Assembly (NCBI RefSeq): GCF_003334255.1
Contig: NZ_QOWU01000039.1
Strand: one strand, 5' to 3'
DNA: 49,222 bases
From: Escherichia coli
GTDB taxonomy: Bacteria > Pseudomonadota > Gammaproteobacteria > Enterobacterales > Enterobacteriaceae
The notes under the pieces were generated by a model. The model did no database searches, was not told the origin of the DNA, and was given only the letters and a program-made list of their open reading frames with translations. The first letter of the stretch is position 1, and each line of letters begins with the position of its first letter. Made by a program: the position numbers and the translations under genes. Shown piece after piece: positions 1-16,982 of the stretch.

Positions 1-77
1 AATCGGTGGAGCTGCATGACAAAGTCATCGGGCATTATCTGAACATAAAACACTATCAATAAGTTGGAGTCATTACC
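1..77 (+). mobile_element. IS1 right-hand terminus (last 77 nt of the element; the rest lies beyond the left window edge)
   Basis: nt 1-77 end in ...CATTATCTGAACATAAAACACTATCAATAAGTTGGAGTCATTACC. I recognise this as the insB-distal end of IS1 with its terminal inverted repeat (complement GGTAATGACTCCAACTTATTGATAGTG). IS1 identity stops at nt 77/78. Confidence 0.85.
3..62 (+). CDS. insB: C-terminal fragment of IS1 transposase InsB/InsAB' (SVELHDKVIGHYLNIKHYQ*); 5' part lies outside the window
   Basis: Hand translation of nt 3-62 gives the remembered InsB C-terminus followed by TAA at 60-62. Confidence 0.8.
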   Translation, partial: SVELHDKVIGHYLNIKHYQ

Positions 78-1005
78 CTGCGTTCTCCACTAACGATATA
101 ACGTTGGCAATCGATAAATCGGGGTTATTGGTGTATTCACAGGAGAGCGCCATTGACGAACATCCCTGTGCGAAACGAACAGATTCGGCAAACGGCATTC
201 CGTCTACCCAACACGAAGCAAGTCCCGCCATCATGGCATCGCCCGCTCCGGTAACATTAATAACATTGGTTTTGATCGGCGCAGACCAGCCACTTTCACC
301 GCTGATATCGCTGTAATAAACGCCGTCGCCGCCCATGCTCAATACCAGTCGGTTCAGGCCATGTTGATGGAACCAGGCAGCAACTTTTGCCACATCTTCA
401 CGCCCTGACAGCGCAATCCCACTCAGGGTTTCCGCTTCAAGGCGGTTTGGCTTGAGAGTGTGGATCTGATTTAGACGGTCGCGCACTTTGACACATTTCC
501 ATGCCGAAACCGGATCGACAAATACGGGTACGTTGGCGGCATTATCCAGAATCCATGCCAGTGCCTCTTCACTGATATTACAGTCCGCGACAATGACCTT
601 TGCCCTCTGAATAAATTCACCGTGCTGTGCGAGATATTCAGCTGTAATAGCGTTGCTAATATTCATGTCATTTATAGCAACCAGCATTTCACCGGTATTA
701 TCGAGTAATGATAAATAACTCGACGTATTTTCTCCCGGCACAATCAGGCATTTATCGACATAAACGCCAGATTGATTGGTTTGCGTTAGCAGCGATTGAC
801 CATAAAAATCACTGCCTACGGCGCTCAGTAGCCAGGCTTTGTTACCCAGCAACGCCAGGTTTTGTGCAATATTGCGCCCTACTCCACCAGGCGTAAATTT
901 TATTTTACCTGGATTTGAATCCGCATAATTTAATGATTCATGTGAATATCCGGCGACATCAATATTCGCCGAACCTATAATTACGACATAATCCTTTTCG
1001 CGCAT
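73..1005 (-). CDS. psuK: pseudouridine kinase PsuK (YeiC), pfkB/ribokinase family; 3' end altered by the IS1 junction
   Basis: The 310-aa ORF MREKDYVVIIGSANIDVAGYS... carries a GAGDA pfkB motif. Two bases of the final Gly codon and the TAA stop (73-75) lie inside the IS1 inverted repeat. I recall native PsuK as 313 aa ending ...ENAECLN. Confidence 0.9.
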   Translation of the reverse strand: MREKDYVVIIGSANIDVAGYSHESLNYADSNPGKIKFTPGGVGRNIAQNLALLGNKAWLLSAVGSDFYGQSLLTQTNQSGVYVDKCLIVPGENTSSYLSLLDNTGEMLVAINDMNISNAITAEYLAQHGEFIQRAKVIVADCNISEEALAWILDNAANVPVFVDPVSAWKCVKVRDRLNQIHTLKPNRLEAETLSGIALSGREDVAKVAAWFHQHGLNRLVLSMGGDGVYYSDISGESGWSAPIKTNVINVTGAGDAMMAGLASCWVDGMPFAESVRFAQGCSSMALSCEYTNNPDLSIANVISLVENAG

Positions 1006-1072
1006 AGCACGTCCTCTGGTAAAAAATTACCAACCCTGTCAATCCACAAGAATATAGATACTGCAAAGACGG

Positions 1073-1108
1073 TTTAAACATGTGTTCATATTTAAACATG
1101 TGCTCATA
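1073..1108. promoter_or_regulatory. tandem 18-bp direct repeat TTTAAACATGTG(T/C)TCATA upstream of psuK; candidate operator
   Basis: Two adjacent copies (1073-1090 and 1091-1108) differ at one base and lie 68-103 nt upstream of the psuK ATG. A related GCATGTTTTA follows at 1113-1122. Confidence 0.3.
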
Positions 1109-1243
1109 GTATGCATGTTTTACGTAAAGTAAATTACCGCCAGAGAGGCAAAATGGGCAGATTTGAGCAGGCTCACAAAATGCGATTAAATGCCTGAATT
1201 ACAAAAGCGAGGAATTTGTGACGGGATGCACAGAACAGAACAA

Positions 1244-1271
1244 TAAAAAAGGGCAGAAAATAATCTGCCCT
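1244..1271 (-). terminator. rho-independent terminator of the fruBKA operon
   Basis: The minus strand reads GGGCAGATTATTTTCTGCCC followed by TTTTTTATT, about 160 nt downstream of the fruA stop. Confidence 0.75.
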
Positions 1272-1387
1272 TGAGGAAATAACCTGAGTGTTTGATGAAC
1301 GTTTGAAGTTTCTACTGAAAGATAAAACCATTTAAATTCATAAAATTACATTCACAAACCGGTCATTCTCTTTGCGCTCATCAAATG

Positions 1388-1427: not shown

Positions 1428-3119
1428 TTACGCTGCTTTCGCTACTGCGTCCACTTCCGGACGTTTCAGGAAGGCATAGGCCAAACCCGCCACCAGCGTA
1501 CCGGCAATAATTGCTACCAGGTAACCCAATACCGGCGTAATAGCGCCAGGGATCAGCAGAACAAACAGACCACCGTGCGGTGCCATCAGTTTCGCACCAA
1601 TCGCCATTGAGATTGCGCCAGTCAGCGCCCCACCCACGATACAGCACGGCAGCACACGCATCGGATCACGAGCAGCAAACGGAATTGCACCTTCCGAAAT
1701 GAAGCACAGTCCCAATACCAGAGCGGCTTTGCCACCTTCCTGCTGCGCTTTGTCGAATTTGCGACGCGCCACCATTGTTGCCAGACCCATTGCCAGCGGT
1801 GGCACCATACCTGCCGCCATAATCGCCGCCATCGGGCCATAGGTTTGAGTACTCAGCAGACCCACACCGAATGCGTACGCTGCTTTGTTTACCGGACCGC
1901 CCATGTCAGTACACATCATGCCACCGAGGATCGCCCCCAGCAGAACCGCATTCGCAGTCCCCATGGTCTGCAGCCAGTGAGTCAGCCCTTCGAGAATGCC
2001 AGCAACTGGTTTACCGATCAGGTAGATCATCGCCAGACCGACCACCAGACTGGAAATTAGCGGAATGATCAGGATCGGTTTCAGCGCCTCCATACTCTGT
2101 GGCAGTTTCAATTGCGTACTGATTAACTTCGCAATGTAACCAGCCAGGAAGCCCGCAATAATACCACCAATGAAGCCAGAACCGGTGCTGACCGCCAGCA
2201 TACCGCCAATCAGACCCGGAGTGAGGCCCGGACGATCGGCAATGGAAAAGGCAATATAACCTGCCAGTACCGGCACCATCAGCGCAAAGGCTGAACCACC
2301 ACCAATCTGCATCAGCGCCGCAGCCAACGTACCCGGCTCTTTAAACGCTTCGATACCAAAAGCAAAAGAAAGCGCGATACACAGACCACCTGCAACGACC
2401 ATCGGCAGCATGTAAGAAACGCCCGTCAGCAAGTGACGGTATGCGCCTGCACTCTCTTTCTTACTTTCAGTGGTCGCCGTTTGAGCTTTGCCCGCCGGTT
2501 CATACGGCGTTGCTTCAGCAACCGCTTTATCCAGTTCCTGCGCGGTTTTCTTCAGCGCCAGACCGGTAGAGGTACGATACATCGGTTTACCAGCAAATTT
2601 CGCCAGATCCACTTCGATATCTGCCGCCACAATCACCAGATCCGCTGCTGCGACTTCTTCGGGAGTGATTGCATTACCCGCGCCAACAGAACCACGGGTT
2701 TCAACTTTCACCCACCAGCCACGTTTTTTCGCTTCGGTTTCAATGGCTTCAGCCGCCATAAAGGTGTGTGCTACGCCAGTCGGGCAAGCAGTCACCGCAA
2801 CTACGCGTTTCGGACCGCTGGCGGCAACTGGTGCTGTCGCAGCGACCGGCGCAGTGTAAGGTTTCGCATGGCCTTTGGCTTCACTCAGGAACAGCTCAGG
2901 GTGCGCAACTGCCCGGGAAATATCGCCCAGCCAGACATTTTTACCGTTCAGCGCGCTGTCGTTCGGGATGGAATCACCGAGAACAATCGCCATTTCAGCG
3001 TCGTTCGGATTGTCGATGATTTCCAGTTTTGCTTTTCGCGCCGCCGCGCCCAGCAGGGTCTTCGCCATATAGGCGCGTGCCTGACCGAGATTAGCGTCAA
3101 TAATCAGCAGCGTTTTCAT
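1428..3119 (-). CDS. fruA: PTS fructose-specific enzyme IIB'BC (FruA)
   Basis: The 563-aa ORF has duplicated IIB'/IIB domains with the phospho-Cys motif VTACPTGVAHTFMAAE and a polytopic IIC domain. It sits in fruB-fruK-fruA operon context. Confidence 0.96.
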   Translation of the reverse strand: MKTLLIIDANLGQARAYMAKTLLGAAARKAKLEIIDNPNDAEMAIVLGDSIPNDSALNGKNVWLGDISRAVAHPELFLSEAKGHAKPYTAPVAATAPVAASGPKRVVAVTACPTGVAHTFMAAEAIETEAKKRGWWVKVETRGSVGAGNAITPEEVAAADLVIVAADIEVDLAKFAGKPMYRTSTGLALKKTAQELDKAVAEATPYEPAGKAQTATTESKKESAGAYRHLLTGVSYMLPMVVAGGLCIALSFAFGIEAFKEPGTLAAALMQIGGGSAFALMVPVLAGYIAFSIADRPGLTPGLIGGMLAVSTGSGFIGGIIAGFLAGYIAKLISTQLKLPQSMEALKPILIIPLISSLVVGLAMIYLIGKPVAGILEGLTHWLQTMGTANAVLLGAILGGMMCTDMGGPVNKAAYAFGVGLLSTQTYGPMAAIMAAGMVPPLAMGLATMVARRKFDKAQQEGGKAALVLGLCFISEGAIPFAARDPMRVLPCCIVGGALTGAISMAIGAKLMAPHGGLFVLLIPGAITPVLGYLVAIIAGTLVAGLAYAFLKRPEVDAVAKAA

Positions 3120-15887: not shown

Positions 15888-16982
15888 ATGGGCGCTTACC
15901 TGATTCGCCGTCTGTTGCTGGTGATCCCAACATTATGGGCGATTATCACCATCAACTTTTTCATCGTGCAAATTGCGCCTGGCGGTCCGGTCGACCAGGC
16001 CATCGCCGCCATTGAGTTTGGTAATGCCGGAGTATTACCCGGCGCAGGCGGTGAAGGTGTTCGTGCCAGCCATGCGCAAACGGGTGTCGGCAATATCAGC
16101 GACAGTAATTACCGTGGCGGACGCGGATTAGATCCAGAAGTGATCGCTGAGATCACTCATCGCTACGGTTTTGATAAGCCGATCCACGAACGTTACTTCA
16201 AAATGCTCTGGGACTACATCCGCTTTGATTTTGGCGATAGCCTGTTTCGCAGCGCCTCGGTGCTGACGCTGATTAAAGACAGTCTGCCGGTTTCCATCAC
16301 CCTCGGATTGTGGAGCACGCTGATTATCTATCTGGTGTCGATTCCGTTAGGCATTCGCAAAGCTGTTTATAATGGGAGCCGCTTTGACGGCTGGAGTAGC
16401 GCATTTATCATCATCGGCTACGCCATTCCGGCCTTTTTGTTTGCCATCCTGCTGATTGTCTTCTTCGCGGGCGGCAGCTATTTCGACCTGTTCCCTCTAC
16501 GCGGCCTGGTTTCCGCTAACTTTGATTCGCTGCCGTGGTATCAGAAAATCACCGATTATCTGTGGCATATCACGCTGCCGGTGCTGGCGACAGTGATTGG
16601 TGGCTTTGCGGCGCTGACCATGCTGACAAAAAACTCATTCCTTGATGAAGTGCGCAAGCAATACGTGGTGACCGCGCGTGCGAAAGGGGTAAGTGAAAAA
16701 AATATTCTCTGGAAACATGTGTTCCGCAACGCCATGCTGCTGGTGATTGCCGGTTTTCCGGCGACGTTTATCAGCATGTTTTTTACCGGCTCGCTGCTGA
16801 TTGAGGTGATGTTTTCACTCAATGGTCTGGGCTTACTGGGCTACGAAGCGACCGTCTCGCGCGATTATCCTGTAATGTTTGGTACCTTGTATATTTTCAC
16901 CCTGATTGGCCTGCTGCTGAATATTGTCAGTGATATCAGCTATACGCTGGTTGATCCGCGTATTGATTTTGAGGGACGTTAA
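15888..16982 (+). CDS. yejB: ABC importer permease YejB
   Basis: The 364-aa polytopic ORF starts 1 nt after the yejA stop. Confidence 0.93.

Follow-up and report, generated by a model that had tools for sequence, protein, structure and literature searches.

Twin palindromic boxes upstream of Escherichia coli psuK as a candidate operator for the HTH-PfkB protein YeiI

The 49,222-nucleotide stretch of Escherichia coli DNA analysed here (the window) covers the psuK and fruA-fruK-fruB region, and a short tandem repeat stands in the spacer between psuK, the gene for pseudouridine kinase, and fruA. According to our analysis, this repeat contains a twin operator that lies over the predicted start site of psuK transcription and is most likely bound by YeiI, a fusion of a winged helix-turn-helix (wHTH) domain with a PfkB kinase domain, which would act as a repressor released by pseudouridine. 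We also lean towards a broader view, in which YeiI and its relatives form a widespread, hitherto undescribed class of one-component regulators that autoregulate the pseudouridine operon via such a twin operator, and in which the Enterobacteriaceae have split this arrangement into the enzyme PsuK and the repressor YeiI.

A pair of conserved palindromic boxes at the predicted psuK promoter

The gene psuK (73..1005, minus strand) heads psuK-psuG-psuT and is the gene that the element would regulate; fruA occupies 1428..3119, and the spacer between the two (1006-1427) is identical to that of E. coli K-12 MG1655 at 422 of 422 positions. With the psuK start at 1005, the repeats are located 68-103 nucleotides (nt) upstream of the ATG. 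The initial annotation had described them as perfectly abutting 18-bp direct repeats, and this is what we find: TTTAAACATGTGTTCATA (1073-1090) is directly followed by TTTAAACATGTGCTCATA (1091-1108), the two copies being identical at 17 of 18 positions. Tandem Repeats Finder reports a period of 18, 2.0 copies and a score of 65, and a second repeat finder concurs. A degenerate form of the 18-mer, with up to three mismatches allowed, has only two sites in the window, both within the psuK repeat, where shuffled sequence is expected to give 0.08 matches and none of 100 shuffles gave two.

Each repeat copy contains a 12-bp palindrome of the form RAACA-NN-TGTTY, and the centres of the two palindromes are 18 bp apart. 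Read on the minus strand, the distal copy (1091..1108) holds box O1, GAGCACATGTTT (1104..1093), with one mismatch to the consensus, and the proximal copy (1073..1090) holds box O2, GAACACATGTTT (1086..1075), with none. The repeated unit is therefore an inverted repeat that occurs twice and not a direct repeat, and the idea of a tandem operator for a dedicated regulator needs to be recast in this respect, although the strong footprint described below fits its core. Tandem repeats of the kind bound by response regulators of the OmpR/PhoB class (direct repeats of ~6-7 bp with a period of 10-11 bp and no internal dyad) do not fit, since the repeats here have a period of 18 bp and a palindrome within each unit. 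To our knowledge, none of the motifs of PurR, DeoR, GlpR, KdgR, LexA and PhoP fits the 5-2-5 geometry either. A further exact copy of the O2 12-mer, AAACATGTGTTC, occurs in the window on the plus strand (16713-16724) inside a yejB-like open reading frame (ORF; 15888..16982), and we judge it to be a chance occurrence because it has no proper partner box.

Conservation was assessed by aligning the 200 nt upstream of psuK in 12 species (four Escherichia species or clades, E. albertii, two Buttiauxella, four Citrobacter and Enterobacter lignolyticus). The conserved blocks are a CRP-like site, a -35 element TTTACT, a -10 element TACTAT, the two boxes and the region of the ribosome-binding site, while downstream of O2 conservation is lost outside Escherichia until the ribosome-binding region is reached. 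Both boxes are kept in 12 of 12 species, so the footprinting bears out that the element is conserved beyond E. coli. The half-sites GAACA and TGTTY stay as they are and the central dinucleotide varies among CA, TG and TA; E. albertii has a perfect GAACATATGTTC as its box 2. Only the K-12-like Escherichia haplotype shows the near-perfect 18-bp direct repeat with its TAT and AAA flanks, which indicates that the direct repeat is an Escherichia-specific sharpening of an older two-box layout. About 22% of complete E. coli genomes carry a divergent, E. albertii-like haplotype with a psuK of 80% nucleotide identity and a spacer of 455 bp, and here the promoter region reads TTTACA-17-TATTAT-G-GAACATGTGTTT-AAATCT-GAACACATGCTC, with both boxes and no perfect direct repeat. 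That the perfect 18-bp periodicity (17 of 18 positions, flanks included) is confined to the K-12-like haplotype would also be expected from a recent, neutral tandem duplication without function. However, the boxes predate Escherichia and keep the same promoter position across genera and classes, and we regard a neutral origin as hardly credible.

Directly upstream of the boxes, the sequence suggests a sigma-70 promoter on the minus strand (1133..1106) that would drive psuK. It consists of a -35 hexamer TTTACT (1133..1128), of which TTTAC is invariant in the 12 species, and a -10 hexamer TACTAT (1111..1106), likewise conserved, with a spacer of 16 nt (16-17 nt across the alignment). The -10 hexamer overlaps the distal repeat copy by three bases, TAT, which end the hexamer and open the copy, and O1 begins one base past the hexamer, the window reading TACTAT-G-GAGCAC. 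The corresponding transcription start site (TSS) would be near 1099, placing O1 at -5..+7 and O2 at +14..+25 and giving psuK a 5' untranslated region (UTR) of ~94 nt.

A third partial motif listed in the initial annotation is indeed present at 1114..1122 on the minus strand (CATGTTTTA on the plus strand, TAAAACATG on the psuK strand), and it falls within the -35/-10 spacer. It contains a single AAACA half-site (1120..1116) that is 16 bp away from the first half-site of O1 and therefore out of the 18-bp register. The form AAAACAYG is kept in 11 of the 12 species, the exception being E. lignolyticus. We consider the motif to be at most a half-site of uncertain role.

Several observations on the wider variation of the locus were made alongside. 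The divergent haplotype is exemplified by E. coli AVS0935 (locus L117, 7577-8973) and also by L115. Two allele classes exist for yeiI as well, with 2060 genomes at 80-90% nucleotide identity and proteins that are 86% identical, and a given yeiI haplotype does not always go with the same psuK haplotype, as NCCP 13905 combines a divergent yeiI with a K-12-like psuK region. In Citrobacter braakii (L010, 4777-5697) promoter and operator are unchanged though psuK is not adjacent to fruA; the fruA-psuK interval of Citrobacter holds a Dcu-type transporter, a cysteate/aspartate racemase-like gene and a HypT-like LysR regulator. Copies of the insertion sequence IS1 were found inside the distal box O1 of E. 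coli VE-T9 (L031; at about window position 1094, at the predicted start site), inside psuK of strain 23AR1101 and in the fruA-psuK spacer of PigCaeca_1, and strain NH-21 (L116) has an IS1-bounded deletion of yeiL-psuT-psuG-psuK. The psuK locus thus looks like a recurrent IS1 target.

HTH-PfkB genes and the candidate binding proteins

YeiI (b2160, 362 aa) carries an HTH_24 domain at residues 1-48 (Pfam E 1.2e-10, above the gathering score) and a PfkB domain at residues 58-348 (Pfam E 2.4e-68), and its N-terminus also gives weak matches to MarR and AsnC-type models. Among solved structures, that of E. coli PsuK (7vkp) is closest to the kinase domain; the best matches in the PDB cover residues 55-359 only, and a PDB sequence search found no wHTH-PfkB fusion among solved structures. 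Nearly all complete E. coli genomes (5423 of 5426) have the gene. In K-12 it is located at L022:6701-7789, outside the window. YeiI was still called uncharacterised in 2022 and 2025 (PMC9061257, PMC12506659), and a 2018 survey entered it as a hypothetical transcription factor only. Machine-learning tools predict it to be a second pseudouridine kinase, which we count as a mis-prediction. The searchable literature contained no link between YeiI and psuK, and, as the initial annotation had stated, it assigns no regulator to psuK at all, the curated regulon databases RegPrecise and RegulonDB being outside this search.

Homologues of YeiI with both domains are widespread. In Yersinia, Serratia, Pasteurella, Shewanella, Xenorhabdus, Aliivibrio and a Burkholderiaceae genome, the fusion gene comes first in HTH-PfkB-psuG(-psuT) operons, and these operons contain neither a separate psuK nor yeiL. 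The same boxes are located upstream of the fusion gene as a pair in Shewanella (AAACAAAAGTTT and AAACATATGTTT, 19 bp apart), Pasteurella (AAACAAAAGTTG and AAACAGGTGTTG, 18 bp), Aliivibrio (AAACAATAGTTA and GAACATATGTTT, 19 bp) and the Burkholderiaceae genome (AAACCTTATTTT and CAACACTTGTTT, 19 bp); in Yersinia, Serratia and Xenorhabdus only one extended 5-2-5 box is present, resembling ACCAAACAnnTGTTTGGT, with the best match in Yersinia. With up to one mismatch allowed, the motif occurs seven times in 2.2 kb of upstream DNA and 29 times in 117.6 kb elsewhere, a 13-fold enrichment (Poisson P 1.7e-6). A metagenome scan added 26 non-redundant upstream regions, the fusion genes being 37-57% identical to YeiI. 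A box pair 18-19 bp apart is present in 17 of 33 distant loci, where shuffles predict 0.1, and the fusion gene is followed by psuG in 68 of 70 loci. The E. coli site has the same two companions, with psuK-psuG-psuT downstream and an HTH-PfkB gene, yeiI, in the genome.

The layout of the promoter is shared as well. In distant loci (seen in L066-L094, L028 and L029) box 1 begins 1-3 nt after a recognisable -35/-10 promoter, and box 2 mostly stops just ahead of the ATG, which corresponds to the promoter/operator geometry of E. coli psuK. In addition, the putative recognition helix ISRSxVAGHIMNL hardly varies among the members of the family, of which YeiI is one, and this agrees with the invariance of the half-site. 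On these grounds we propose that the twin RAACA-NN-TGTTY boxes are the operator of the wHTH-PfkB family (YeiI and HTH-PsuK), a family defined in this analysis, the binding being predicted. As a side observation, in many single-gene HTH-PsuK operons (L066, L069, L071-L073, L025 and L029) only 0-2 nt separate box 2 from the ATG, and the predicted TSS falls in box 1; such HTH-PsuK leaders are ~25-30 nt long (~-33 to -1 relative to the start codon of the fusion gene), consist almost wholly of operator and have no obvious Shine-Dalgarno sequence.

The initial annotation had named a different candidate, the CRP/FNR-family protein YeiL, whose gene lies between psuT and rihB in Escherichia. The E. coli box junction, TGTTT-N6-GAACA, does form a 5-6-5 palindrome with CRP-like spacing. 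This junction exists only where the boxes are 18 bp apart and is broken by the 19-bp spacing of distant operons, where each 5-2-5 box is kept, and Yersinia, Serratia and Xenorhabdus carry a single extended 5-2-5 box; the boxes themselves are 5-2-5 and not 5-6-5 or 5-4-5 as for CRP/FNR. The distribution of the gene points the same way. A tblastn search for YeiL across the loci gave matches in Escherichia and Shigella loci only. Six Citrobacter and Buttiauxella species, together with E. lignolyticus, have intact boxes at a locus that lacks the nupX-rihB-yeiL block and in which yeiI is the next gene after psuT, and the distant beta- and gammaproteobacterial operons with boxes have no yeiL nearby. 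YeiL was rejected as the binder on both its distribution among these loci and the site geometry, and we rate its binding to the repeats as highly improbable. YeiI is favoured because it is the HTH-PfkB gene, and not yeiL, that tracks the motif across loci.

It is also conceivable that the twin operator is real and bound by a different factor, be it a global regulator or a protein yet to be found, with the HTH-PfkB association being indirect, for example through a shared pseudouridine regulon. This would agree with the distance of yeiI from the site in E. coli (6.5 kb) and with the lack of yeiI mutations among those listed from evolution experiments, both of which are taken up below. Against this stands that, across beta- and gammaproteobacterial and metagenomic loci with G+C contents from 25% to 63%, no DNA-binding protein other than the HTH-PfkB fusion is regularly encoded at the locus, that the fusion gene comes immediately after the box pair, and that the recognition helix of the fusion is as conserved as the half-site. 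We therefore hold this alternative to be unlikely, if worth keeping in mind, and retain YeiI as the probable binder.

Promoter strength, CRP-like sites and the fruA 3' region

Mouse-gut evolution of E. coli repeatedly selected one adaptive A->C change in the psuK/fruA spacer (NC_000913.2 position 2257444), which was described as lying in the psuK promoter region and altering growth (PMC7518454, PMC9509342, PMC6731689, PMC10340439). An A->C psuK/fruA allele named 'psuKp', which agrees with the gut mutation in locus and base change, also arose in three of four long-term (1,200-day) stationary-phase populations (PMC7858067). By converting the coordinate from.2 to.3 (+1978, giving NC_000913.3 position 2259422) and then onto the window, we located the gut mutation at 1131, a plus-strand A. 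It is 23 bp upstream of the repeats and not within them. On the psuK strand the change is T->G and turns the -35 TTTACT into TTGACT. Such a change is a classical -35 up-mutation. The papers on this single-nucleotide polymorphism (SNP) call it a promoter-region change without giving the -35 reading.

A consensus scan proposed an alternative promoter closer to psuK, with a -35 TTTAAA (1078..1073), a -10 TATATT (1056..1051), a 16-nt spacer and a match at 9 of 12 positions. It was discarded as the main promoter, being not conserved outside Escherichia, with both end positions of its '-10' (1051 and 1056) polymorphic in E. coli; among the sampled E. coli variants these two positions are polymorphic and the boxes, the -10, the -35 and the CRP site show no polymorphism. 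A related possibility is that the boxes, occupied by YeiI or another factor, activate this downstream promoter, relative to which they sit at ~-35 and ~-55. The 9/12 match and the overlap of O2 with its -35 speak for this. The variable -10 segment speaks against it, as does the adaptive SNP, which improves the upstream -35 instead, and in distant operons box 2 abuts the start codon and leaves no room for a promoter. Activation from the boxes thus appears improbable to us.

The two boxes could furthermore act as RNA. Within the predicted 5' UTR they can pair into an 11-bp hairpin (GUUUAAAUAUG/CAUGUUUAAAC; minimum free energy -25 kcal/mol for 99 nt, z = -2.4), and some two-box hairpin is possible in every species, so that an effect on mRNA stability or translation, alone or beside protein binding, deserves consideration. 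However, the register of the hairpin differs between Escherichia and the other genera, and it is the half-site sequence that is conserved and not complementarity with covariation. Each box is moreover self-palindromic around a 2-nt centre, which is useless for an RNA stem, Rfam gives two chance-level matches only (E ~0.5-1), and any adjacent pair of palindromes yields such a hairpin as a by-product. We consider a function of the repeats as RNA very improbable, and continue with the predicted upstream promoter and its protein-bound operator.

Upstream of this promoter two CRP-like sites were found on the minus strand, which are the only matches to TGTGA-N6-TCACA with at most one mismatch in the 49-kb window and are 55 bp apart. 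The proximal site, TGTGAGCCTGCTCAAA (1162..1177), has one mismatch, reads TGTGA-N6-TCAwA in the alignment and keeps a constant distance to box 1 in 12 of 12 species. Its centre at ~-70.5, counted from the predicted TSS, would be a class I position (sites centred near -61.5, -71.5 or -82.5). The distal site, TGTGCATCCCGTCACA (1217..1232), is centred at ~-125.5; it deviates from the consensus at one position in Escherichia and at two in Citrobacter and E. lignolyticus. Judging from these sites, the psuK promoter is probably CRP-dependent; nothing was found in the searchable literature on regulation of psuK (yeiC) by CRP or by any other regulator. In vitro selection with RNA polymerase (systematic evolution of ligands by exponential enrichment) lists nfo>yeiI, but not psuK, with a constitutive RpoD promoter peak (PMC3946193), as would suit a regulator that is made constitutively and a psuK promoter that is weak and depends on an activator.

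A strong intrinsic terminator of the fruBKA transcript (1249..1272, minus strand; a 9-bp stem followed by TTTTTTATTG) is located ~155 nt past the fruA stop and separates the psuK promoter from fruA read-through. An imperfect hairpin (1386-1418) follows fruA ahead of it and has the arms GGGCAGA/TCTGCCC in common with the terminator; E. lignolyticus has a single terminator ~25 nt after fruA. A 52-aa ORF (1173..1331, minus strand) overlaps the fruA 3' region (1243-1427), and this region could represent a long fruA 3' UTR or a small RNA derived from it.

Proposed mechanism, origin of YeiI and related systems

We posit that YeiI, probably as one dimer per box, occupies O1 and O2 over -5..+25 and there blocks either the binding of RNA polymerase or its escape from the promoter. 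The promoter under its control would be weak, owing to the -35 TTTACT, and would probably need cAMP-CRP. Once pseudouridine or pseudouridine 5'-phosphate occupies the kinase-like pocket, YeiI would bind DNA less tightly and be released.

A number of points weigh against this model. No TSS is recorded in the psuK-fruA spacer in the TSS tables examined (Cappable-seq, Kim 2012 and Conway 2014 were sought). The gene yeiI is not adjacent to psuK in E. coli, where it is found ~6.5 kb from the site and directly behind nfo, and a scan of the window and of 18 kb around yeiI-psuK found no box upstream of yeiI, nupX, rihB, yeiL or psuT. A box spacing of 18-19 bp amounts to ~1.7 helical turns, so that two dimers would not lie on one side of the helix. 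A further point is the capacity of the boxes for the RNA hairpin discussed above. Finally, in the parts of the gut and stationary-phase evolution reports available, the -35 SNP is the sole allele at the psuK locus (PMC7518454, PMC9509342), and the mutations listed there include no loss of function of yeiI and no operator mutation, which is weak evidence. According to the same partial record, the repressors frlR, srlR, dgoR and glpR were mutated repeatedly in the same experiments. If loss of yeiI derepressed psuK, the gene would offer the larger mutational target, and the missing yeiI mutations are therefore odd. The promoter may be too weak even when derepressed, gut pseudouridine may already be inducing, or loss of YeiI may be costly.

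In its kinase domain YeiI retains, according to an alignment with PsuK, the equivalents of the pseudouridine-contact residues S30, N143 and K170 of E. coli pseudouridine kinase (EcPUKI), of which N143 and K170 maintain substrate affinity and S30 induces the catalytic conformational change (PMC9061257). Its GAGD motif, the anion-hole and catalytic motif, has become GADD and its NxxE motif TxxE. Both substitutions are present in 45 of 45 YeiI-type proteins scored for the two motifs, and GAGD and NxxE are both present in 42 of 42 single-gene HTH-PsuK proteins. By analogy with what is known of ribokinase-family enzymes, we infer that GADD and TxxE impair catalysis in YeiI, which may thus be a pseudokinase serving as a sensor rather than an enzyme. 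The simplest history would be a duplication, in the Enterobacteriaceae, of a bifunctional HTH-PsuK ancestor, after which one copy would have lost the HTH to become the pure enzyme PsuK and the other would have kept the HTH and lost its catalytic integrity to become YeiI. In other proteobacteria, HTH-PsuK would still combine the roles of kinase and autoregulator of its own HTH-psuK-psuG(-psuT) operon.

Regulators of similar design are known. The ROK repressors NagC, Mlc and XylR likewise join a wHTH to a kinase-fold ligand sensor with lost or reduced catalysis and repress the catabolic and transport genes of their ligand. However, the fold of YeiI is PfkB/ribokinase and not ROK/ASKHA, Pfam finds no ROK domain in it, and the sites of NagC and Mlc are ~23 bp long, as opposed to the paired 12-bp 5-2-5 palindromes of the psuK operator, 18-19 bp apart. 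The resemblance is one of logic only. In the trigger enzymes BirA (wHTH and biotin ligase) and NadR (HTH and nicotinamide mononucleotide adenylyltransferase/ribosylnicotinamide kinase), an enzyme fold doubles as a regulator. The single-gene HTH-PsuK proteins are comparable to these, as they keep GAGD and NxxE and stand first in their own operon behind the operator pair; judged by these features, such a protein looks like an active enzyme that autoregulates its pathway. Unlike BirA and NadR, the E. coli system is split into the paralogues PsuK and YeiI.

With respect to DNA-binding, the sites of CRP (TGTGA-N6-TCACA) and FNR (TTGAT-N4-ATCAA) are also inverted repeats bound by a dimer, but the psuK boxes are 5-2-5, paired, overlap +1 and are conserved without yeiL. 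Lrp/AsnC and MarR proteins have a similar HTH_24-type domain, and the best, non-significant PDB neighbours of the YeiI N-terminus include Lrp/AsnC proteins; YeiI differs in having a PfkB partner in place of a RAM or MarR dimerisation domain. The nucleoside promoters controlled by CytR/CRP and DeoR (deoP2, cdd, udp, nupG, tsx) combine tandem CRP-like sites with a specific repressor. The psuK promoter resembles them as that of a catabolic nucleoside operon with tandem CRP-like sites ~55 bp apart, but its sites are centred at ~-70.5 and ~-125.5, compared with -41.5 and -93.5 at the CytR/CRP promoters. No TGCAA-type CytR half-sites were seen by eye between the CRP-like sites of psuK, and the likeness of the DeoR palindrome TGTTAGAATTCTAACA to the box junction is confined to the outer TGTT...AACA of the latter.

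Our analysis proposes a specific regulator, an operator and a promoter for the pseudouridine catabolic operon of E. coli. A pseudouridine-responsive pair of repressor and operator, if confirmed, would be a ready-made sensor and a useful biosensor for production strains, such as are now engineered to supply pseudouridine for mRNA manufacturing (PMC12500856, PMC10552469). The proposal, if true, would also account for the repeated adaptive mutation of the psuK promoter in the gut, with the psuK/fruA A->C change read as a -35 up-mutation in a weak, activator-dependent and operator-controlled promoter. It would further provide a function for YeiI, one of the E. coli y-gene products, and the passage from HTH-PsuK to PsuK and YeiI would represent a clean example of enzyme-to-regulator subfunctionalisation.

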